From a virus, in IMG/VR virus record IMGVR_UViG_3300050120_000121, positions 35,905-99,904 of that record: 64,000 nucleotides of DNA. The stretch is one strand, 5' to 3'. A program made the position numbers and the translations under genes. Shown here piece after piece: positions 15,929 through 62,929 of this stretch. Positions within the stretch are counted from its first letter, which is position 1. Every line of letters starts with the position of its first letter. Below the pieces are notes generated by a model. The model did not search any database, had not been told where the DNA came from, and saw only the letters and a program-made list of their open reading frames with translations.

Positions 15929-17517
15929 TGGCAAGGACAAAAGCTTCATGCTGCCCAACTGGCTATACAACTCGATCGTACGACACGTCTGGAAACAAGA
16001 TTTGGAGCGCGAACTATTTCGGTGGTTCTTCGGCCGGCGCAGTAACCTGTCAAGCCGTAGATGCATCACGAGTCTATGTCGGAGGCTCCAGAATAACCGC
16101 CAGTGGCACTTCATGGTCGGTCGTCTGCTTCGATATTGTGACTGGGCAATTTCTTTGGAGCCATGATCTCCTGAACGATCTCACTCCAACCGATCCGTCG
16201 CTCGGAATCCCGATTCAGATGCAGATCGACACATCAGGAAATCTTTCTTGCATGCTGTGGCCTGGAGCCTACAACTCGACAACCGCACAAAAACAGAACT
16301 TCGTTGTTCTCGACACGACGGGGGCCACGGTAGCGACCTATCAGTACACTCAACCAACCATCTCCGGGAAACCGATCTATTCCGTGGATTTCACGATCAA
16401 TGGACTCGGCGACTATCATATTGCTGGATCAGCTATCGGACTGACGGATTCCAACGGATTCGTAAACGATTTTCACATGCTGGACTGGGCCAGCGGGTTT
16501 GGCTCATCGCCGACAGACCATCACATCACAGACCTGTCAGGGAGCAACGCGACGGCATCCGGAATCATTGCCGCCTGCATGTTTCGACAAAGTTCACACG
16601 ACTATATCAGCGGGAAGCCACGCCTGGTGCCAGGATCATTCACCAATGGGTCCGCATCTCCACTCTTGTGGTCCGCTCCGTCAATGTGGGGTGGACCATC
16701 CGGTAATGCAATCGCGACATCATTTTCCAGTTTCTCGCAAAACATTTTTCAGCGAACACTGACCTTGCCAGGCACGGCGATAACCGCGACAGGAACGACA
16801 CAGGGAACGGCCGCAGCACTGACTGCGAATACCGCATACAACATCACGCGATCAACCGGAAATCTTGGTGTCATCCTGCCGTCCGCAAGTGCCGGAGACC
16901 GTGTGTGTACAGCGGTCATGAGTCCGAATTCGTTCGGCACACCAGCGCAGAGAAACATTTACCCGCCGTCTGGCGGCTACCTGATCGCCTCGAACTTCAC
17001 GCAGTTGGCTGTGAATACGCCGATCACATACAACGATGGAGACTATTTCGTCTGCATTGGCGGTCTCAACTGGATCCAAATGTTCGATGACGGCGGCATC
17101 ATATCGGATCGGATTTCCGTGGACACGTCGGGTAACGTGTTTTCGATCACGCTGACTGACGGAGTCATCGGGAAGTACATTCCGTCTGGCGCGCTCATGT
17201 GGCGAAAGGGCAAGTTCGCTGCCAACACGATTCAGGATGCTTCAGGCAATACGTATTCCATCGGCAAGCGCTCAGGGCCAACAGGTGCATCTGTGTGCGC
17301 TCGCGATTCCAACGGAGCGTGGCTATGGGGTCATTGGAACATGGGGTCGTGGCTTCTCCACGGAAGCGGTTCGACTGCCGATATGCCACGATCCTGTGTC
17401 GCAATCGAGCCAAGCGGATCAAACATTATCATCAGCGGTTGCGCCGATGAAACCGGATCAGGTGGCCCATGCAATTCGGTAAACGACCTGAACTTCGTGT
17501 CCGATCCGTGGCCGTGA
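15913..17517 (+). CDS. Putative receptor-binding/tail protein with beta-propeller repeats
   Basis: Repeated YD.SG...W, VD.SGNV, D.SGN.Y blades; last gene of the tail operon. Confidence 0.6.
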   Translation: MRCIMMARTKASCCPTGYTTRSYDTSGNKIWSANYFGGSSAGAVTCQAVDASRVYVGGSRITASGTSWSVVCFDIVTGQFLWSHDLLNDLTPTDPSLGIPIQMQIDTSGNLSCMLWPGAYNSTTAQKQNFVVLDTTGATVATYQYTQPTISGKPIYSVDFTINGLGDYHIAGSAIGLTDSNGFVNDFHMLDWASGFGSSPTDHHITDLSGSNATASGIIAACMFRQSSHDYISGKPRLVPGSFTNGSASPLLWSAPSMWGGPSGNAIATSFSSFSQNIFQRTLTLPGTAITATGTTQGTAAALTANTAYNITRSTGNLGVILPSASAGDRVCTAVMSPNSFGTPAQRNIYPPSGGYLIASNFTQLAVNTPITYNDGDYFVCIGGLNWIQMFDDGGIISDRISVDTSGNVFSITLTDGVIGKYIPSGALMWRKGKFAANTIQDASGNTYSIGKRSGPTGASVCARDSNGAWLWGHWNMGSWLLHGSGSTADMPRSCVAIEPSGSNIIISGCADETGSGGPCNSVNDLNFVSDPWP

Positions 17518-17531
17518 GATCGTCGAAAAAA

Positions 17532-18815
17532 TCACTTACCGGCGACCTCTCCTGTCTCGGCGTACTTGAATGGATCTTGGTACGTCACGCCGCCCCTGAT
17601 CGAGTCAGGGTTCACCGAATGCGTCGAGACGGCACCGGTTCGCGTAAATAGCGCGAGGATGGCCTTGTCCCCGCGTTCGTATCCATTCGCAGACGGATCG
17701 CTCCAAACTCCGTATTCGGGACATGACGACGTAGGGTAACTCGACGGATTCGACCAATACTGCCGATCGCGATCCGCGTCTTTCTGATCTGCAATGTAAA
17801 ACTCGATCAATCCCTTCTGCGCCGCTGGTCCCATGATGGCGCCTGATGGCGAAAACAGAATGTCCATCTGCGTGGAGTAATCAAATCCGCTCGGGTCTGT
17901 TGAGAGTGGCGAAAAGATTTTCCACGATGACGGCAGTTTTGATCCGCGATTGCTAGCGAGCGTCGCTGCATTGACCTGTTCGATTGTGTTGACGTAGGAG
18001 GCTGTTCCGGGGCTTCCGATGACTCCCGACGAACGGTCCAAATGAATGACAGAACCCTTTGGGAGTTGAATCATATCGGAACCCGGCAAAACACTGTTCG
18101 GCAGAATGAGTTGATATGTCATCGGTCCGCCGTTCATGAATGCGTTGATTTCTTGCGGATTGTTGTTCGTGGGCGGATTTGGATAGGCTGTCGTCAGTCG
18201 CAATCGCGGAGGATACGTTGGAGTCACGCCAGCAGCGGTTGCATTGGCCAGAAGATCAACAGTCACCGTATACCACAGTCCTGTCGGATCGTTCGGAATC
18301 TTGATCTTTGCTCCGTTGGTCAACAATCCTTCATTCATGAGGTCGACCCATGCGGTAGGGATTGCATCAGGATTCGCAGGATCACCGTCAAAACCTCGCA
18401 CGATCCATGCCAGTGGATTTGCCACTCCACCGACCCATTCATCAGATATCCCATTGTTGTCAACATCAATCCGCTCCAGCCGAATCTGACCTTGTGTCCA
18501 TGCCGGCGTCTGCTGAATATAAATCATGCTTGACACAGTTCGGCTTGTCTGACCGACAGTTGACGAATCCAGCAAGAATCGCAAACCTCGCGGGGCTCTG
18601 GCGTAAATCGCGCGATCACGCGCACCAGCAAGAGCCGACTGAAGCTGACGAGCCGCCCCGCGAACCTTGTCGTTATTGACCGACAGCTTCACGGCCGACA
18701 TCGTGAGTGTCGCCAGGATGAGCATAATAACGACGACGATCAGCAGTTCGACCAGAGTGAATCCAACACGAGTTTTCCGCACGATTTGTCTCCTCGAAAG
18801 TGAATGTTTGAACAC
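17532..18815 (-). CDS. Prepilin-type N-methylation domain protein (FimT/GspH-like minor pilin or pseudopilin)
   Basis: Basic leader then G|FTLVELLIVVVIMLILA; VRGAARQLQSAL..AR.RA helix; DILFSPSG. Confidence 0.9.
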   Translation of the reverse strand: MFKHSLSRRQIVRKTRVGFTLVELLIVVVIMLILATLTMSAVKLSVNNDKVRGAARQLQSALAGARDRAIYARAPRGLRFLLDSSTVGQTSRTVSSMIYIQQTPAWTQGQIRLERIDVDNNGISDEWVGGVANPLAWIVRGFDGDPANPDAIPTAWVDLMNEGLLTNGAKIKIPNDPTGLWYTVTVDLLANATAAGVTPTYPPRLRLTTAYPNPPTNNNPQEINAFMNGGPMTYQLILPNSVLPGSDMIQLPKGSVIHLDRSSGVIGSPGTASYVNTIEQVNAATLASNRGSKLPSSWKIFSPLSTDPSGFDYSTQMDILFSPSGAIMGPAAQKGLIEFYIADQKDADRDRQYWSNPSSYPTSSCPEYGVWSDPSANGYERGDKAILALFTRTGAVSTHSVNPDSIRGGVTYQDPFKYAETGEVAGK

Positions 18816-18869
18816 GAAACATTCTACACAACGGAAAACAGCGGCAACCGGATCAAATTTGCTCCAAAA

Positions 18870-21685
18870 TCACGTCAGATCGACGTTGTACGCTTCGGAC
18901 ATCAGTTTGACTGACTCGGCAGTCCAGTCGTCATTCGCGTCAATTTGCAGATCGACAGGCTGAACTTTGCATCGTTTCGAATAGCGAGCCTTGCGGACAA
19001 ACGGAATCCAGCTTCGAGCGGCGTTCAACTGTCGCCAAACTCGACCAACGCGAATCCATTGACCGTTCTCAAATGAGAGGATCAGGTAGACGGTGATTGT
19101 GCGAATCACTGGTAACATTTCCAGAATCGGCCGAGGTGAAACGAACCATTCAATATCGACACGGGATTACTCGTCGAGTATTCCGCGATTCGGATCAACG
19201 TTTGGTCGACGATTTCCACGACGAGATATGGATATCCGGGTGATAGAAGATGACCCATGTCGATGTCACATTCATGGAAGTTGAAGCAAACGATCTCATC
19301 GCCGATCGAAATTCCGGTTTCGTCGATCAATTCAAGCATCATTTCGGCTCCAATGTTTTCGGCGGAACTGCGTCGGGGATTCGCTGCCAGAGACAATCCA
19401 TCTGATCAACTCGTTTCTGGTAGAAGTCGCTCAATTTTTCGGACAGTCGCCCCCCATCGAACGGATTGAATTCCAGCCGAACAATCGTCGTTGTGCCCAA
19501 ATGAAGCCGATACCACCACCCCGAACCGTCCGGCCGATCCAACCACGGCGCAGGCTGCTGGATGTCGGCATAGCGGACCCATTCGCCGTGCTCCCGTTCA
19601 ACCAAGTCCTGCCAGCCGATGCTCACGACTTCAAGATCGTATTTCTGAATCGTCATTGTGTTTCCCTATTCAATATGCCCACAGTGCGGACAGGTCACGC
19701 CTGCGTTACCGGCACAATCTCGGTTAGCCTCATCGTCCCACGGTTCTCGTTCGGAAAGCTGCTTCTCCAGCTCCGCAATCCGCTCGCGTAGTGGAGCTGT
19801 CGAGAATTCAACAACAACACTGGCCGCGTCTTCATAGGCTTTCTGAACGGAACGCTTCAGTCCGTGCCAACCGATCTTCGGCAGCCCGCTGTACCCTTCA
19901 TAAAGAATTTGACCCGCTGACTTCTCTTCGCTGCTCATTGGCTGGACTTTCCAAAGTTGATGGCATCGACATACATCTTATTGTCACGCACCTTGTAGAA
20001 CGCTTCGAGACGAATTGCCGCCATTTGCCAGTTCAGGATTTTCGGAGTCCAGTTACCATCAGGATCTTCGCCTCTCAGTTCGCACAGCTTTCGTGCGGCA
20101 ACTTCAATCTGCTGGTCGGTCATTCTGAATCCCTGCAAAACGGCTTAATCGCAATCAATCCGAGAAAGAACACGCCATAGAGGATTGGATTTGATGTCGG
20201 CACAATTGAGTATTTCGCGGCGATCCGATCCATCAGGAACATCAGCAATCCGATCGCAGCAAGATAGGAGCAAATCCAGTCTCTCATTTCACTTTCTCCA
20301 GATATTGCGACAGGGTTTGATTCCAGTGGGACTGACAGGCGGCTTTGGCAGAGTCTGCATTGTCGTGAGTTCTCCCATCAACAACGATATCTGACTCCTG
20401 ATTGTCCGCATGAATTGCTTGGCATGTGATGCCAGTTGTTGTTCGGTTAATATCGACACGATACACGCCGTTGATGACTTCACAACGCCAATATTCAGGA
20501 TACGGCAGTTCCCATTGCAGCGGAGCAATGCGATAGAGCGATTCGGTCATTCGACAATCTCCAAGTCAAATTCGCACATCATAACAGTCGAGCCATCGAC
20601 CAATTTAACTTCGACATAGAATTTGCCGAACAGAGACTGAGAGTATGAAAGCACAACGTCACCAATGGTTCCCTCGCGAATGAGAAAATTGTCGGTCCCG
20701 ATGCGACTGTCTCGAATCACGCGAACCATCGAATGTTTTGGAATTCGGCTCATCAAAGCGTCCTTTCGATCTTATGGCGAATCAGGGGTTTGGGGATCGT
20801 CAAGATCGACCGTTTCAGTTCGATTGACGAGTCTTTCAACGGCCGGATTTGACAAAAGAAACTTCTCGCCGGACTTGAGCGTCAGCCATGAATCAACGAT
20901 CGACAAAATGGCATCAGGATGAAAATAGATCGGCCTGCAACCGGAATGTCGAGTGCGGAACAAGATCGACTTTGAAGGCGGTTTCATCAAGATTCCTTTC
21001 GAACTGGTGGCGAAACAAGCAAGTGAGGCATCTTTTCGACAATGTCATCGACTCGCAAAAATCCTTCCAGTCCATCAACCTGAAACAGCCCGAAATAGGC
21101 ATCGAGCCATGTGCATTTCTTGGGACCGGATGGAAATATCGCCGTGAACGTCGAAAAATCAAATCCTTCAGTCTTCGCCAATTGTTGGCAGTCATAAAGA
21201 GAAATCATCAAAGCATCTCCCGAAAATCAGAATCAATCTCGCACACATCCACATCAAATGCCGTCAGGTCCATCTGGAAGCGGTTGCCATAGTGTCGGCA
21301 AATCGCCTGTCAGATCGTCGCCAGTATTATCGAACCAGTGTCCGTCAGTTCCGCAATCACCGTCTTCATCAGCATCGAAGATCCATTGTGCTGTGAAAAC
21401 TCCAGCATCCGCTCGCCAAACAATGATTTGCGTGCCATCTCTCGGGGCTGAATCAAACGACCGCCAACGGTGAACTTCCCACGGAGAAACGCGATTGAAA
21501 CATCCCATGAGATCGTCTGTGGCAACTCCACAATCAGGACAACCCCAAACGTCATGCTCTTTCGGCGAAACTCGTGCAGGAGTGTTGCAGCGTTTGCAGA
21601 AGTAAAGCGGAATCACTTCCCATGAATCAATGAAGGCACATTTGGTAGGCATTTTTCGGTTTGCTTTGAATCGACTCCGCGTCAA
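18870..21685 (-). other. Leftward operon of small hypothetical phage ORFs (21254-21685, 20987-21211, 20772-20990, 20547-20756, 20284-20550, 20120-20287, 19935-20123, 19666-19938, 19339-19656, 19106-19320, 18870-19118)
   Basis: Chain of ATGA-overlapping ORFs; 21254-21685 has W...DSAPRDGT.I...PT.WQPLP (DUF551-like); 20120-20287 is a two-TM peptide absent from the ORF track. Confidence 0.7.
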
Positions 21686-35578: not shown

Positions 35579-35946
35579 TGGACACGGAACGCTTACAACG
35601 GCGAGTCGACGGCCGAACTCAAGCGAAAGCGATTTTCGACCTGTTGACGCTCGATCATCCCGACAAGATCGCAGCGTTTTTCGACGAACTCGATTCGCGA
35701 TTTCGACCGAAAACCGAAGTTGCGAAACAGATTGAACGTCGCAAGATTCGCGAACTGTCGGTCATCACAATTGACTTTGGGGCACATTCTGGCAAACAGA
35801 TGGACGAAATCCCACGGGAATACCTTTCGTGGCTTCTGGAGTCATCTGAGCAGACTTGCAGCGATATCCGCGAATATCTGGAAGCGACTGCCGAACGTGG
35901 CTCACCAGACGACGTAGGCGACTTTGAGATCGAGGACACGGAATGA
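35578..35946 (+). CDS. DUF3820-like protein
   Basis: FGAHSGK.M.EIP.EYL.WL. Confidence 0.7.
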   Translation: MDTERLQRRVDGRTQAKAIFDLLTLDHPDKIAAFFDELDSRFRPKTEVAKQIERRKIRELSVITIDFGAHSGKQMDEIPREYLSWLLESSEQTCSDIREYLEATAERGSPDDVGDFEIEDTE

Positions 35947-51382: not shown

Positions 51383-51543
51383 ATCGTGTTTTTCAACTCT
51401 GCGAAAGGAAAGCAACTGTGACAGCGAAACTGAAGGCAGCTTTCTGAGATGGAATCTGACACTCGTTTCTGTTAAAAGCGAAAAGCCGTTCGTTGGCACG
51501 ATACGGCTTCTCTAATCACTCGACGCTTTTACGGAGCATCGCC

Positions 51544-52224
51544 ATGACTGTTGAATTTGTAGTCGCACCTCTGTTGACACGCAAGAAGTTCAATGACTTA
51601 ACTGGGAAAGAATATAGCTATTTGACCGTAGATTCGTTCGCTGGTGCTCTACCGATGTCAAATGGTAAAAAACAATCTCATTGGAATTGCGTTTGTCGTT
51701 GCGGAATCAGAATTTCAGCTATTCCTCATGGGCGACTGACGAGCGGAAATTCGGAAAGCTGCGGTTGTTTGTTTCTAGAGAGAGTCACTCATCACAACAT
51801 GGGGAAAACGGCTGAGTATAAAGCATGGGGAACGATGATTCAGCGATGCACCAACGACAGAAATCCAGCATGGAAGAATTATGGGGGTAGAGGAATTGCC
51901 GTTTGCGACGAGTGGCTGAAGTCGTTCATATCGTTTTTCGAATATGTTGGACCAAAGCCTACTCCAAAACACTCACTTGATCGGTTCCCAGATGTCAACG
52001 GGAACTATGAACCCGGCAATGTCCGTTGGGCCACGTCGAAGGAGCAAAGTCGGAACCGAAGGGGAACGAGATTGATTTCGTTCAATGGGGAAAGAAAATG
52101 TATTACCGATTGGGCTGAAATAGTTGGCATATCGTGTGGTGTTATTTGGGGTCGGTTGGATTCTGGATGGAGCGTAGAAATGGCGTTCACTGCTCCAGTA
52201 AAAAAGAAGAAAGAAAAACAATGA
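51544..52224 (+). CDS. Free-standing HNH homing endonuclease
   Basis: W.C.C.CG, SCGC, EY..W..M.QRC, YGGRGI.VC.EW, SLDR.PD.NGNYEPGN.RWAT. Confidence 0.88.
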   Translation: MTVEFVVAPLLTRKKFNDLTGKEYSYLTVDSFAGALPMSNGKKQSHWNCVCRCGIRISAIPHGRLTSGNSESCGCLFLERVTHHNMGKTAEYKAWGTMIQRCTNDRNPAWKNYGGRGIAVCDEWLKSFISFFEYVGPKPTPKHSLDRFPDVNGNYEPGNVRWATSKEQSRNRRGTRLISFNGERKCITDWAEIVGISCGVIWGRLDSGWSVEMAFTAPVKKKKEKQ

Positions 52225-57645: not shown

Positions 57646-58341
57646 ATGGTGATGAAAAAACTTGAAATAGCTGATGGCGAAACAATTGGGATTCTGACGG
57701 CTATTCGGGATGCTGGATTGAAAAAAGTTGGGAAGGTGTTTCGAACGTCCACGTTGTTTCTGTGTAAATGCGGAAAAGAAACGGTTATCACAAATTCCGA
57801 TGCCAGATCCGGGAAAATCAAATCGTGTGGATGCCTTCGCGTCGGCCCTCCAAAAAAGCATGGGCATGCAGCGACGTACAATCCTTCCATAGAATATCGG
57901 ACATGGTCAGCAATGATTGGTAGATGCAGCGAATCTAGCCGCGGAAAAAAAGGCGGAAAGAGATATGTTGATCGGGGGATCATTGTTTGCGAGCGATGGA
58001 AGGATTTCGAGAATTTTCTTGCTGATATGGGACCGCGATTGTCAGTCCAGAACAGCATTGACAGGTTCCCCGATCAGGACGGAAATTACGAACCGGGAAA
58101 CTGCCGTTGGGCCACGAGCATCCAACAGGCAAACAACACATCCGCGAATGTGTGTCTCACATTTTACGGCAAGACAATGACTCTTACCGAATGGTCTAGA
58201 ATTAGTCTCGTGCATTCGAACACAATACGAATGAGACTCAGAAAAGGGTGGAGCGAAAAACTGGCAGTATGGACGCCAACGATGGTTGGAAGGTTCCAAA
58301 AAGGAAACAGAAGCAAGCGGTGGGCTCCATTGTCCACATAA
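57646..58341 (+). CDS. Free-standing HNH homing endonuclease (paralog of 51544-52224)
   Basis: C.CG, SCGC, EY.TW..M..RC, RGI.VC.RW, IDRFPD.DGNYEPGN.RWAT. Confidence 0.88.
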   Translation: MVMKKLEIADGETIGILTAIRDAGLKKVGKVFRTSTLFLCKCGKETVITNSDARSGKIKSCGCLRVGPPKKHGHAATYNPSIEYRTWSAMIGRCSESSRGKKGGKRYVDRGIIVCERWKDFENFLADMGPRLSVQNSIDRFPDQDGNYEPGNCRWATSIQQANNTSANVCLTFYGKTMTLTEWSRISLVHSNTIRMRLRKGWSEKLAVWTPTMVGRFQKGNRSKRWAPLST

Positions 58342-58509: not shown

Positions 58510-58585
58510 GGCGAGATAGAGAAGCCCGGTCCATCTCGTGAGCCTCATAAGCTCAAGATCGGTGGTTCAAATCCACCTCTCGCCC
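58510..58585 (+). tRNA. tRNA with CAU anticodon (Met-like, atypical)
   Basis: GGCGAGA/TCTCGCC acceptor, GAGA/TCTC D stem, TGAGC-CTCATAA-GCTCA, GGTGG-TTCAAAT-CCACC; CCA not encoded. Confidence 0.9.
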
Positions 58586-58619
58586 CTGAATCACAAATCC
58601 CTTCTAGTCAGGACGAAAC

Positions 58620-58901
58620 ATGCCCGCAAATCTGCCAACTCCCGCTCCTGTCCCAACGTTGTTCGAATCCATTGAAGCTCGTGCATTGGCGGTCGAGACG
58701 TGCGTTGAAACACATCTCAAAGCGGTTTCCGTCGCCGGATTGACGAAACTCAATGCCGTCATCGCGAATAGCGGAACTCTGCCGTTCGGATTGGAGCCGT
58801 ACAAGGTGGAAGTCGAGTCTTTTTTGTCCGACGCTCTGATCCTGGCACAATTGGCCGCTCAATTGGGACTCATCACGGCAACACCAGCGACTCCCGCATA
58901 A
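58620..58901 (+). CDS. Small hydrophobic protein
   Basis: AGGA RBS; Ala/Leu-rich C-terminus. Confidence 0.6.
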   Translation: MPANLPTPAPVPTLFESIEARALAVETCVETHLKAVSVAGLTKLNAVIANSGTLPFGLEPYKVEVESFLSDALILAQLAAQLGLITATPATPA

Positions 58902-58948
58902 TTCACGCTCAATATCAGCAGGACGCACAAATCAATCGAAGGGACGCG

Positions 58949-59437
58949 ATGAGCAAAACACTATGGGTCGGGGTTGGATGTCTGGTTGTATTTGTCGCGT
59001 CTCTTGGCATGTGCCTACATTTGGCGTCGATTCCGCAAGTCATGTCTGCCACGGATGGACCGCCTCCAACAATCACTTGGACATCCCTTTGGGGAATGAT
59101 CGCATCTGGTGCGTTTGTTCCGATGGTATTGGCGTTCTGGAAGGAACATCAGTCACAGATTGATTCCGCGACAACGGCGATTCAGGGAGTGGTCACAACC
59201 GTTACCGGAAATGCGAAGTCGTCAACGGCAATTGAAGCGGTCTCTTCCGCTCTGGCATACGCTGCGAACAAGACCGACGCGAACGCGAAAGCACGGTTTG
59301 TAAACGCTCAGTTGGCAGAAATTCGCGACATCATGGGCAATGATTCAGCGATTGCCAATCCGCTCAATGCTCTCGTGATTGCCATCACGAACGCACAATT
59401 CCCAGTTGATCCTCTCAAGATTTCGGTTCTCAAGTAA
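58949..59437 (+). CDS. Membrane protein with two TM segments (holin/spanin-like candidate)
   Basis: Hydrophobic segments near aa 5-26 and 42-63, soluble helical tail. Confidence 0.55.
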   Translation: MSKTLWVGVGCLVVFVASLGMCLHLASIPQVMSATDGPPPTITWTSLWGMIASGAFVPMVLAFWKEHQSQIDSATTAIQGVVTTVTGNAKSSTAIEAVSSALAYAANKTDANAKARFVNAQLAEIRDIMGNDSAIANPLNALVIAITNAQFPVDPLKISVLK

Positions 59438-59447
59438 AGGTCCGCAC

Positions 59448-59906
59448 ATGCGAAAATGGATGTTCGGACTTGTTTGCGTTCTGGTCATCGGATGCACTGT
59501 CAGCGAACGCGGGATTACGTTCAATTGGGGCGGCAAGTCTGGTCCCGTTTCTCCGGTCAATCCCGTTCAGCCGATCACAACACATGAGTTTCGGTGTCTT
59601 TTCATCCGAGACAATGCCACAGATTCAAAGGTCACATCAACTCAGCGGGCAATGTTGACGGGCGGAAACACTCGCAAGTTTCTGGAAGAGAACTGCGTCA
59701 AGGTTGGCGACGATCCAGGACATCGGTACGTCGACAAAACGACTGAGCTTTCAGGGATATGGAAAGACATGGTCGCGAAATATCCCCCAACGGGTTATCC
59801 GTGGGTGATTCTGACAAACGGTGCGGATGGCGAAGGATTTCTGTTGCCAAACGACTTCGAGCCGGAATTCACAGCGAAAATGAACAAATACGCGGGGGTC
59901 AAATGA
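59448..59906 (+). CDS. Lipoprotein
   Basis: MRKWMFGLVCVLVIG|C lipobox, Pro-rich linker. Confidence 0.7.
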   Translation: MRKWMFGLVCVLVIGCTVSERGITFNWGGKSGPVSPVNPVQPITTHEFRCLFIRDNATDSKVTSTQRAMLTGGNTRKFLEENCVKVGDDPGHRYVDKTTELSGIWKDMVAKYPPTGYPWVILTNGADGEGFLLPNDFEPEFTAKMNKYAGVK

Positions 59907-60691
59907 GCGATCTATTTGTCATCAACGATACGAACGCCGATCAGCATGCCAGAGATACATCCCATCTGTGCGGCTGCTTGCCAAGACGTGAAGTGTTTGG
60001 AGCATTGCCGTTCGCAAGTCCCGCTCCGATTGATTTAATCGCTTGGGAGGACATGCCGGACATGATTTCGGATCAAGCGAAAAATAAGAATTCACTTGTC
60101 GATATCTGGCAAGACTCGAAGATCGGAATTTTGAATCAGGGCCAACTCAATTATTGCTGGAGTTTCAGCGGTGTAATGGCATTGATGCTTCAGAGGGAGG
60201 TTGACGGGCTTCCGTTCGTTCATCTGTCGCCAAGCTCGGTCGCTGGGCCTGTGGTCAACTATCAGAACTGCGGATGGTATATTGAAGACTGCTTAAAGCG
60301 AATGTGTTCGGACGGGGCGAGTTCAATCGAATTCGTTCCAGAAACGACATGCAATGCGGCCGACTTCAAGCCGGGTTGGAAAGAATCCGCGTCAATGAAC
60401 AAGGTCACAATGTGGCAGGACGTTGGATCAAATGTTCAGGCACAGAACACGAAGTTATTGAGGAATCAGCCGCTGGCCGTTGCCCATTCGTGGTGGTCTC
60501 ATGCAATCGTTCACCTGAGATTGACGGACGACAATCCGAAACTGCCCGCGAATAACCCGCTTCGATATGGTCGCGACCCGTTAAATTCATGGGGCGCTGG
60601 GTACGGAAAGAATGGACTATTCCATCTGACGGGACAGCATTCAATCGCCGATCAATCGTATGGGATTCTTGAAGTCAAATTTGCGGCGTGA
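59903..60691 (+). CDS. Papain-like (C1-type) cysteine peptidase
   Basis: NQG..NYCW.FS, LSP.S, SHAI, NSWG..YG.NG. Confidence 0.85.
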   Translation: MSDLFVINDTNADQHARDTSHLCGCLPRREVFGALPFASPAPIDLIAWEDMPDMISDQAKNKNSLVDIWQDSKIGILNQGQLNYCWSFSGVMALMLQREVDGLPFVHLSPSSVAGPVVNYQNCGWYIEDCLKRMCSDGASSIEFVPETTCNAADFKPGWKESASMNKVTMWQDVGSNVQAQNTKLLRNQPLAVAHSWWSHAIVHLRLTDDNPKLPANNPLRYGRDPLNSWGAGYGKNGLFHLTGQHSIADQSYGILEVKFAA

Positions 60692-60721
60692 GTCGTAGTC
60701 TCTTTCCACGGAAGGAAAATC

Positions 60722-60811
60722 ATGCAATCCCTCTCAAACTGGCTCAATGCAATCCATGTGATTGGGGGTCTCATCGCTTTCGCCGCAGAGGTGTTGGCGG
60801 TGACACAGTGA
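60722..60811 (+). CDS. 29-aa hydrophobic peptide
   Basis: GAAGGA RBS; MQSLSNWLNAIHVIGGLIAFAAEVLAVTQ; GTGA overlap with next gene. Confidence 0.5.
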   Translation: MQSLSNWLNAIHVIGGLIAFAAEVLAVTQ

Positions 60812-62568
60812 CAAATGACAATTCCCGTATTCGACGCTTATGGCTCAACGTCGGCCTATCCGTGGCCATCTGTGGTGATTTGGGTTTCGCGGGAGAAAAA
60901 GGTTTCCAAGTCCCGAAGCCGTTCTCCGCTCCCAAGACATTTCAATCACCGAAAGGTTTTGAGATCCCGCGACCGGAGAAGTCCGAACCTGTACCGAAAC
61001 CGATTCGCGAACCTGAACCCGTCAAACCGCTCAAACTGGAATTGCTCGTTCCGGTCTCATCGGCTCCGCTTTCGTCACCGATAGACGCTTCTGTGATACT
61101 TGGCGTCAACGGGAAAGACTCCAAGGGGCATGCGATTCAGGTTTTCGGATCAGGGACCGTGATTCTGTCGCATGACGGCAAATCGACGATCCTGACGTGT
61201 GCTCACAATCTGCGAGGGATTTCGCAACCGTCCATCTCGGTCACAAGCCAAACGAAACTCTACTCGGGAACCGTTCAGAGAATCGACGATCCGAATGACT
61301 TGGCGTTGATCGAGGTCAATGGCGAACTTCCCTACGTAGAACTGGCGGAATCAATCCCGAAGGTTGGCGACGTTCTGACTAGCATTGGATCGTCAGCGTC
61401 AAAGCTGGAAGAGCGATCTCACAAACTGACAGCCATCGACAAATACGACGCTCCGAAGAATTTCGAGACGGACGGCAAACAGGAACCCGGTCGATCTGGC
61501 GGCGGATTATTCTTCAACGGGGAACTCTGCGGAGTGATTCAGGGTCGCGTAGGAACGTCTCAACTGCCGATCTATGTCTCAGCCGATCCGATTCGCAATC
61601 TGCTCGCCCGTCAAGCGTACGGCGATTCACAGCAGACGGAAATCGAACTTTGGATGGCTCCATTTCGATGTCCACCATGTGACGTGTTGAATGCGTCGGT
61701 TGGCCAAGGGAATGAGCGAGTCAAAGTCGTCGGCCGGTACATCGCTCCGAAACACTGGAATCCGAGCGGCACATTTCCGTTTGTTCGAATCAAGGATTCA
61801 AAGGACCAATGGCATCTGTACCACGGCTTGCGGAATCTCGCGGATGTCGAAGGACAGATTGCGAAACTGAATCCGCCAGTTGTGTCGGCTCGATATGAAG
61901 GCGAAACACCATCGGGAGTGACGCTGAACGGGTCGGCAATCATCCAAACGGGATTCGATCGACTGACGGAATTCTTCGGCGACGGTTCTGAATTCGCGAT
62001 TGATTGGACGCGGATCGGCGGGAAAGACGCATTGCCCGCGAATGGCAAGTACACGAAAAAAGACATCTTCGGCAGTTCTGGCAGCATTTCGATTGGCGTG
62101 AAGTCAACGAAGAAACTCCCGGTGAACGCGATTCGATTCGGGTATCGTTTCGGACCAGGATCGGACGGTCGCGAAAAGCTGTTTCTGAAAACGGAAGATG
62201 AAATTGAATGCGAGATTCCTGAAACTGGCATCGTCGGTTCAGGTCCGCAAAAAGTCGGCATCATCCCGATATTCGTGGCTTACGAAGTCATTTCGCTGAT
62301 CTATGACGTCTACGCGTTGTTTAATCCGACAGTGGACGTGTTTCTCGGCGAGTCCGTATCCGTGAAGTCGAAACTCAGCCAGAACGTGTTGACAGTCACG
62401 ATGATCGACCCAATGCCGAGACTTCGGCTGAACTGGTCATTCTTTTTCGGATTCGTGAAATACGAATATTCCAGGGACTTCACGGGGCTGATCCTATCGC
62501 CGCAGAAGGGAACAATTCAATTCCATCATTCGCATTTTTACAGAGACGTTTCGTTGCCAATCCATTAA
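60808..62568 (+). CDS. Trypsin-like serine protease fused to a CPPC thioredoxin-like segment and a large C-terminal domain
   Basis: Signal-like N-terminus, GSG.V, LTCAH, DLALI, GRSGGGLF, RCPPC. Confidence 0.85.
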   Translation: MTNDNSRIRRLWLNVGLSVAICGDLGFAGEKGFQVPKPFSAPKTFQSPKGFEIPRPEKSEPVPKPIREPEPVKPLKLELLVPVSSAPLSSPIDASVILGVNGKDSKGHAIQVFGSGTVILSHDGKSTILTCAHNLRGISQPSISVTSQTKLYSGTVQRIDDPNDLALIEVNGELPYVELAESIPKVGDVLTSIGSSASKLEERSHKLTAIDKYDAPKNFETDGKQEPGRSGGGLFFNGELCGVIQGRVGTSQLPIYVSADPIRNLLARQAYGDSQQTEIELWMAPFRCPPCDVLNASVGQGNERVKVVGRYIAPKHWNPSGTFPFVRIKDSKDQWHLYHGLRNLADVEGQIAKLNPPVVSARYEGETPSGVTLNGSAIIQTGFDRLTEFFGDGSEFAIDWTRIGGKDALPANGKYTKKDIFGSSGSISIGVKSTKKLPVNAIRFGYRFGPGSDGREKLFLKTEDEIECEIPETGIVGSGPQKVGIIPIFVAYEVISLIYDVYALFNPTVDVFLGESVSVKSKLSQNVLTVTMIDPMPRLRLNWSFFFGFVKYEYSRDFTGLILSPQKGTIQFHHSHFYRDVSLPIH

Positions 62569-62578
62569 GGGGTTAATC

Positions 62579-62929
62579 ATGAATCGAAGATCGTTTGTCG
62601 GTTTGTTTGCATCGGCAGTTGCGTTGATTCCATTCGCAGGGTTCGCGAGCACTCCGGAGCGGATGAAGCTCACGGTAATTCACGAGCCACAAAACAAGTG
62701 GTATCGGGTCGTCGGATCGTTCGAGGCGAAGAAAAAGTTCCACTTTGCGTGGCAGACGAAGTTGTGGCCGGAATGGCAGCAGCACATTCGGCCACTGGAA
62801 GAGAGAACTGCGTTTCTGTGGGACATGATGCAAGGTCACGACGGCCTGTTCTCAACACCGAATCGACAGGTCGTCGAGGCGATCAAACACGCGATCTCAA
62901 ATTGCGGTTGCGTCGTGACTGTCCTCTAA
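62579..62929 (+). CDS. Protein with twin-arginine-like signal
   Basis: MNRRSFVGLFASAVALIPFA. Confidence 0.55.
   Translation: MNRRSFVGLFASAVALIPFAGFASTPERMKLTVIHEPQNKWYRVVGSFEAKKKFHFAWQTKLWPEWQQHIRPLEERTAFLWDMMQGHDGLFSTPNRQVVEAIKHAISNCGCVVTVL

Follow-up and report, generated by a model that had tools for sequence, protein, structure and literature searches.

In the lysis cassettes of the lambda S-R-Rz/Rz1 type, the enzyme that attacks the wall is a glycosidase, an amidase or an M15/M23 peptidase. Other phages have added to this scheme. The signal-arrest-release (SAR) endolysin Lyz of phage P1 is activated by disulfide isomerisation in the periplasm, and mycobacteriophage LysB is an additional enzyme directed against a lineage-specific envelope layer. 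In archaeal phages, the pseudomurein endoisopeptidases PeiP and PeiW cut wall peptides with a papain-like core. A core of this kind also cuts wall peptides in the clan CA cysteine-peptidase endolysin domains CHAP, NlpC/P60 and Amidase_5 (PMC10318531). The present analysis concerns a block of genes at positions 58620-62568 of a 64,000-nucleotide stretch of viral DNA (the window), in which a papain-fold (C1) cysteine peptidase without an export signal is encoded beside predicted exported proteins of thioredoxin-like fold. From its predicted proteins and their conservation, the block is on balance probably a lysis or envelope-opening module, in which the C1 peptidase would be released by a membrane protein and would work together with its exported thioredoxin-fold partners.

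The window is the last 64 kb (positions 35,905 to 99,904) of the 99,904-bp IMG/VR virus record IMGVR_UViG_3300050120_000121 (G000), a linear record of 83% completeness by CheckV. It comes from a peat phage whose presumed hosts are planctomycete bacteria. The block follows a tRNA-Met gene, and its four well-supported genes span 58949-62568. The features of the block are as follows.

58620-58901, plus strand: open reading frame (ORF) of 93 amino acids (aa), a doubtful cassette member (no transmembrane segment, no family, no relatives)
58949-59437, plus strand: 162-aa protein with two transmembrane (TM) segments, a holin-like candidate (hydropathy scans, conserved position)
59448-59906, plus strand: 152-aa lipoprotein with lipobox VIGC (lipobox, structure search)
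59903-60691, plus strand: 262-aa papain-fold (C1) cysteine peptidase (AlphaFold/Foldseek, conserved residues)
60137-60139, 60155-60157, 60500-60502 and 60584-60586: catalytic codons of the C1 peptidase for Q79, C85, H200 and N228, respectively
60722-60811, plus strand: 29-aa hydrophobic ORF, plausible (ribosome-binding site, codon-position GC)
60808-62568, plus strand: 586-aa exported, membrane-anchored fusion protein (Pfam, structure search, conserved residues), with a TM helix at aa 5-27 and a Pro-rich disordered linker at aa 28-88
61090-61611: S1C protease domain of the fusion, aa 95-268, with H133 at 61204, D164 at 61297 and S230 at 61495
61636-61869: thioredoxin-like domain of the fusion, aa 277-354, with CPPC at 61669-61680
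61933-62565: C-terminal beta-rich domain of the fusion, aa 376-586 (about 210 aa), with one hydrophobic helix

The genes are closely coupled: the lipoprotein stop overlaps the C1 start in an ATGA sequence (59903-59906), and GTGA overlaps are present at 60688-60691 and 60808-60811. The block is like the lambda-type cassettes in its place before the terminase, in the order of a small membrane protein and then an enzyme without a signal peptide, in the presence of a lipoprotein and, in one related cassette, in a Pfam holin. It is unlike them in its enzyme, which has the C1 papain fold. The lipoprotein is a 152-aa thioredoxin-fold protein and not a short Pro-rich o-spanin, and no coiled-coil i-spanin accompanies it. 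The two thioredoxin-fold partners and the S1C protease have no counterpart in the lambda-type cassettes.

The C1 peptidase was identified from its predicted structure. Its Pfam match to PF00112 is below threshold (E 0.0023, 18.5 bits against a cut-off of 20.7), while the relatives P0153 (38.6 bits) and P0065 (33.3 bits) pass the cut-off. The AlphaFold model (pLDDT 75) matched cathepsins K, L, V and S with a Foldseek probability of 1.0 and an E-value of about 4e-8, and the top 50 Foldseek matches in the PDB were all C1A enzymes, over about 215 aligned columns. Q79, C85 and H200 are invariant in 78 diverse relatives, and N228-S229-W230 is at least 90% conserved in them. The fold and the Q/C/H/N-S-W constellation are shared with the C1A papain family (cathepsins K/L/S, ficin, cruzain, and the BFVD phage proteins annotated 'Peptidase C1A'). 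The phage-encoded enzyme differs from that family in having neither a signal peptide nor an I29 propeptide, in its own N-terminal motif G-x-x-P-R, in its sub-threshold Pfam score and in its place beside exported thioredoxin-fold proteins. It is also distinct from the clan CA endolysins, since it carries no wall-binding domain and has a conserved redox partner alongside; the CHAP and NlpC/P60 profiles do not match the record, and the nearest folds are those of C1A cathepsins. In BFVD, a 484-aa phage protein that bears the annotation 'Peptidoglycan binding-like' aligns with the C1 model over 218 columns (E 1.4e-5). Because of this match, and by analogy with the papain-clan wall peptidases CHAP and NlpC/P60, the C1 peptidase may itself be the wall-cutting enzyme.

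A profile search for the C1 family gave 951 clusters (50% identity) at E<=1e-3, of which 693 reach E<=1e-10. The members are, with few exceptions, stand-alone proteins of 250-290 aa, and the closest homologues include a 90% identical protein on a 109-kb contig. In the metagenomic relatives P0023, P0074, P0144 and P0160, inteins (Intein_splicing, Hint) are inserted directly before the catalytic Cys motif. Inteins are typical of genes that a phage cannot lose, and their insertion in the C1 gene therefore suggests that its function is indispensable.

The partners of the peptidase carry export signals. In the lipoprotein, residues 46-151 form a thioredoxin-like fold without CxxC (ESM Atlas model); a structure search with this segment gave TM-scores of 0.75-0.80 against viral clusters of 267-274 aa and of 0.57-0.60 against Thioredoxin clusters, and a PDB sequence search gave no significant match. 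The same domain is that of the 'helper' whose gene precedes the C1 gene in most related phages. The 162-aa protein has two hydrophobic segments near its N-terminus, at about aa 5-26 and 44-64, followed by an Ala/Thr-rich C-terminal part of about 100 aa, and relatives occupy the same position in three other cassettes (L006, L007 and L087; E 8.5e-15 to 2e-7). It has the topology of a holin (small, one to three TM segments, beside the lytic enzyme), its gene lying two genes upstream of the peptidase gene.

In the 586-aa fusion protein, the S1C domain was recognised as Trypsin_2 (E 1e-12), with Z scores of 23.2 to Deg2 and 22.9 to DegS; DegQ was also matched. H133, D164, S230, C288, C291 and P324 (at the cis-Pro position) are invariant in 10 relatives. 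For the thioredoxin-like domain, the beta-alpha-beta order of secondary structure fits, with CPPC at the start of the first helix, and hhalign to a Pfam-positive phage thioredoxin aligns the CxxC motifs weakly (E 0.021). The fusion itself has no Pfam Thioredoxin match; its positional counterparts in relatives have one. No PDZ domain was matched in Pfam at E<=0.1. The C-terminal domain found no match in an Atlas feature search (best score 0.79) or in a PDB sequence search, and a structure search covering the whole fusion was taken up by matches to the protease domain. The protein is like HtrA, DegS and DegQ in its S1C fold (Z 21-23), its DegS-like N-terminal membrane anchor and its predicted periplasmic location, and like the Trypsin_2-Thioredoxin proteins of Planctomycetota in the fusion of a protease with a CxxC thioredoxin. 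It differs in having no detected PDZ domain and an extra 210-aa C-terminal domain, and its identity to the cellular planctomycete proteins is 26-37%, over the protease domain only. The best cellular matches of the S1C domain are from Planctomycetaceae and Schlesneria metagenome-assembled genomes (MAGs). Relatives of this domain were found in at least 115 stretches of Planctomycetota GTDB genomes (Pirellulales, Planctomycetales, Isosphaeraceae, Thermoguttaceae), and the few cellular relatives with Pfam annotation (P0011-P0016) also carry a thioredoxin domain.

A first-pass annotation, made by a model from the sequence alone, had described the block as a tightly coupled operon with a 2-TM protein, a lipoprotein, a papain-like peptidase with intact Q/C/H/N residues and an exported trypsin-like protease fused to a CPPC segment, and the results given above confirm each of these. 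Its holin-like partner held in part: the 2-TM topology is present and a Pfam holin occurs in two related records, but the window protein belongs to no holin family. The spanin-like topology that it proposed was not recovered, the lipoprotein being a globular 152-aa protein of thioredoxin fold with no type II inner-membrane coiled-coil partner seen. The small hydrophobic protein that it placed first in the operon is not a membrane protein. No segment of this 93-aa ORF passes the TM hydropathy scan, it has no Pfam or PHROG match, and tblastn gave no match in the related loci L003-L007. The 29-aa hydrophobic peptide that it listed is plausible but not conserved. This ORF has the ribosome-binding site GGAAGGA and a codon-position GC typical of the neighbour genes. 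The stretch could alternatively be an N-terminal extension of the protease, as a 626-aa ORF starting at GTG 60688 in the other frame; codon-position GC fits the frame of the 29-aa ORF and not the 60688 frame. The small ORF is favoured because of this composition and its strong ribosome-binding site. The related cassettes L007 and L087 lack it, and their two protease genes overlap directly.

The gene set is kept in phages that are otherwise unrelated. A 27.6-kb contig from the bin of a Schlesneria MAG (L007) carries the genes for 2-TM protein, lipoprotein, C1 peptidase and S1C fusion in the same order, and has the Erf and exonuclease genes in common with G000 as well. The same four genes in the same order are present in a 37-kb IMG/VR phage (G001, locus L087). 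Only five proteins are shared by G000 and G001, among them the products of three cassette genes and the N-terminus of a 1282-aa protein encoded near the start of the G000 record. Because the two phages otherwise share almost nothing, the cassette behaves as a selected module. No match to either protease was found by tblastn in GenBank phages.

For a wider comparison, 88 IMG/VR loci were recovered with two C1 subfamily alignments and their ORFs were clustered; a narrow C1 alignment had found nothing in IMG/VR and GTDB, and the 78-sequence alignment was too diverse as a query. In 40 loci the gene directly upstream of the C1 gene (offset -1) encodes the helper (about 268 aa, with the domain of the window lipoprotein at its C-terminus), and in 50 the helper gene is no more than three genes away. 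A cluster of exported thioredoxins occupies +1 in 13 loci, and the large terminase subunit gene (TerL) stands at +2 in 14, with the genes for portal, S49 protease and capsid after it. Among the 58 loci with at least three genes on each side, the helper is upstream in 39, a small TM protein is upstream in 32, and an exported CxxC protein is downstream in 27. When Pfam was run on representative neighbours of the C1 genes, the +1 neighbour was identified as Thioredoxin, with fusions of Trypsin_2 and Thioredoxin, in both domain orders, in three other phages, and the terminase was identified by its GpA nuclease domain. In L136 a protein matching Phage_holin_4_1 (E 8e-25) is encoded three genes upstream of the C1 gene, and such a holin is carried by two near-identical records. 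Judged from these neighbourhoods, the conserved core is a predicted exported thioredoxin-fold helper, the C1 peptidase and a predicted exported thioredoxin, and the serine protease recurs as a facultative fusion partner of the thioredoxin. As far as gene content can tell, hundreds of uncultured phages carry this trio, in many cases immediately before TerL.

In G000 itself, TerL is near the other end of the record, and the gene map of the whole record, built from PHROG and Pfam scans, has these landmarks.

Genome 10.4 kb: TerL gene (PHROG/Pfam scan)
Window start: head protease-like gene (phrog_80) adjoining the capsid gene (PHROG)
Window up to about 17.5 kb: tail genes (PHROG/Pfam)
Window about 26-58 kb: replication and recombination genes (DnaB, helicase loader, Erf, exonuclease, polymerase parts, HNH) (PHROG/Pfam)

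In G001, a homologue of the 1282-aa protein is encoded 2.7 kb past the cassette. Because of this synteny (L087), the two contig ends of G000 are probably adjacent, which would place the cassette between the replication genes and the block leading to the terminase, roughly 12 kb from TerL provided that the ends adjoin. Lysis genes usually sit at such a place, between replication or late-regulation genes and packaging genes.

A conventional endolysin was searched for in the record and in related phages. No muralytic domain was found when the cassette, ten large ORFs and another 73 ORFs of the G000 record were run through hmmscan, nor with PHROGs. Six-frame searches of the 99.9-kb record were negative for GH24, Amidase_2, SLT, Amidase_3, GH25, M15_4, M23, NlpC/P60, CHAP and GH19, the last of these having had no working control. 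In another phage (G003; 112.9 kb, complete) eight lysin families gave no match. Among 45 records that carry the C1 gene and reach 30 kb or more, of which seven are rated complete, none matched PF00959 (GH24), PF01510 (Amidase_2), PF13539 (M15_4) or PF01464 (SLT). As controls for the six-frame family search, T7 gp3.5 and T4 e and gp5 were found, and lambda R (J02459) was missed with PF00959; for that reason the absence of PF00959 is weaker evidence than the absence of Amidase_2. An anticorrelation between the C1 cassette and endolysins is at most suggested by this survey, which covered four families in cassette-carrying phages.

These comparisons bear on the remaining statements of the first-pass annotation. 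That no muralytic enzyme is visible, which it had said of the window, holds for the whole 99,904-bp record by hmmscan, PHROGs and the ten-family search. The late, lysis-gene position that it had recognised is supported, the block being placed between the replication and the packaging genes, and directly upstream of TerL in many relatives. It had taken a papain and a trypsin-like protease as the core; the core is instead the helper, the C1 peptidase and the thioredoxin, and the serine protease is absent from most related cassettes.

In the mechanism that we favour, the 2-TM protein would permeabilise the inner membrane late in infection. The C1 peptidase, which has no signal of its own, would then reach the periplasm and cut the peptide bonds that hold the wall together, either in the stem and cross-link peptides of peptidoglycan or in wall-bound proteins. 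The thioredoxin-fold partners, exported beforehand, would act in the periplasm, the CxxC-less lipoprotein as a helper and the CxxC thioredoxin as a redox-active protein that maintains the catalytic thiol in its reduced state or breaks disulfides of the substrate. In the G000 lineage the thioredoxin is fused to an inner-membrane-anchored HtrA-type protease and a C-terminal domain, which would supply a second periplasmic proteolytic activity. P1 Lyz and LysB are precedents for the thiol-disulfide control of a lytic enzyme and for an extra enzyme against an envelope layer, respectively. In those systems, unlike here, a canonical muralytic endolysin is kept; at the present locus none is recognisable and the redox function resides in a separate exported protein.

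Several observations weigh against a lysis module of this kind. The 162-aa protein is in no Pfam or PHROGs holin family, and a promoter and terminator scan of the cassette gave nothing better than shuffled sequence. Divergent endolysins can escape Pfam. The survey of the 45 records covered four families in cassette-carrying phages and missed lambda R in its control. With the record 83% complete, a lysin could sit in the missing sequence, a caveat that is countered by the L087 synteny, from which the contig ends appear to adjoin. Finally, in G003 an S1C relative with analogous neighbours adjoins the integrase gene, where accessory genes also sit.

What the module would have to open depends on the host wall. 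In five genomes of the clade to which the host presumably belongs (Schlesneria, Planctomicrobium), Mur-ligase genes number 5-7 per genome, tandem pairs among them, and YTV-domain matches 4-8 per genome. Cys-rich YTV proteins have been reported in planctomycete wall preparations, and peptidoglycan gene sets are reduced in many Planctomycetales (PMC8567305). The likely host would thus have both peptidoglycan and YTV wall proteins. Because of its 5-7 Mur-ligase genes per genome, peptidoglycan probably must also be breached by the phage. The mechanism put forward by the first-pass annotation is a special case of the lysis module: the thioredoxin would reduce, and the two proteases digest, a Cys/Pro-rich wall protein layer cross-linked by disulfides, so that no peptidoglycan hydrolase would be needed. 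We assign to this special case about a third of the probability given to a lysis module, and taken alone it is rather doubtful. The YTV-domain genes in all five host-clade genomes and the reported wall proteins and reduced peptidoglycan gene sets speak for it, as do the invariant CxxC beside a periplasmic protease, the many cellular Trypsin_2-Thioredoxin fusions in Planctomycetota and the lack of a muralytic domain in the record. The Mur-ligase genes, by which peptidoglycan is probably made, and the absence of the serine protease from most related cassettes speak against it.

The same genes might instead be an accessory set that remodels the envelope, its products acting from the periplasm by degrading or altering proteins of the host surface, in superinfection exclusion, receptor destruction or host takeover. 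The integrase-adjoining S1C relative of G003, with a TM protein and a lipoprotein upstream, would fit such a role, and the G000 block is flanked by tRNA and HNH genes, which are typical exchange points; the cellular S1C-thioredoxin homologues, moreover, look like periplasmic housekeeping proteins. Yet the C1 peptidase has no export signal, the trio holds a constant position ahead of the terminase in hundreds of phages, the inteins in the C1 gene point to an indispensable function, a Pfam holin lies within the same gene block in L136, and no other lysis genes were found (ten families in the record, four in the 45 records). We regard an accessory role as unlikely. A part in virion assembly, such as the maturation of head or tail proteins, is very improbable. 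In many relatives the C1 gene does immediately precede the genes for TerL, portal, S49 protease and capsid, but those relatives have the S49 protease gene, as G000 has the phrog_80 head protease-like gene beside its capsid gene. The signal peptides, lipobox and TM anchors of the partners place them in the envelope and not in procapsids, and in G000 some 12 kb would separate the cassette from TerL with the contig ends joined.

Should the lysis or envelope-opening module be confirmed, a new class of enzyme with a redox partner would join the short list of routes by which phages open the envelope, and an unannotated family of proteins, with roughly a thousand clusters, would gain a function. What the planctomycete wall is made of, which is disputed, would become accessible to experiment, as the targets of the two proteases and the reductase would show which polymers bear the load. 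The enzymes of the cassette could also serve as reagents for lysing planctomycetes, which are hard to break. A more general proposal can be made only tentatively, and we think it has a rather low chance of being right: a large group of uncultured tailed phages, those of planctomycetes included, might lyse their hosts with no glycosidase or amidase, a holin-released papain-type protease and exported thioredoxins dismantling a wall that is based on or tethered by protein, to which the planctomycete lineage would add the HtrA-reductase fusion against the YTV layer. In a literature search no paper describing the papain-thioredoxin cassette was found.

Further features of the record and of related phages are given below.

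Genome 16436-20080, upstream of the window: fusion of a portal protein with two enzyme domains, an inorganic pyrophosphatase and the catalytic core of a topoisomerase IB (Pfam InPase E 8e-56, Topoisom_I E 2e-25)
Window 51493-52224 and 57646-58341: pair of paralogous genes for HNH endonucleases within the replication region (phrog_374, E 2e-60 and 1.5e-46)
Window 58510-58586, plus strand: tRNA-Met (CAT) gene, given as context of the cassette (ARAGORN; Rfam tRNA, 61.9 bits)
Window 62579-62929, plus strand: 116-aa ORF whose product begins with a twin-arginine-like signal, N-R-R-S-F and then a hydrophobic stretch (translation)

A PHROG 'endolysin' match within the portal fusion protein was caused by the InPase domain and was rejected as a lysin. 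The 1282-aa protein is encoded at genome 3042-6890, and its N-terminal 131 residues are 46% identical to the protein at L087 14247-15299, after the G001 cassette. It looks like a fibre or host-recognition protein, and by its position in the two phages it may travel with the cassette. In the complete G003 record (112,930 bp, with terminal repeats), the stretch L089 5275-11608 carries, beside an integrase gene, the genes for a TM protein, a lipoprotein, a GNAT acetyltransferase, a 339-aa protein and the S1C relative (23% identical), after which comes a 1199-aa tail-fibre-like gene. The neighbours in L089 were considered as homologues of the window genes and rejected, being topological analogues only. 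The 116-aa ORF has no Pfam or PHROG family match and no relatives in the related cassettes; it begins 11 nt past the protease gene and may be co-transcribed with the cassette. At the other end of the block, the second HNH gene (57646-58341) lies directly upstream of the tRNA-Met gene and the cassette. The tRNA-Met gene, between this HNH gene and the cassette, ends 33 nt ahead of the first cassette ORF and may mark a boundary of the module.

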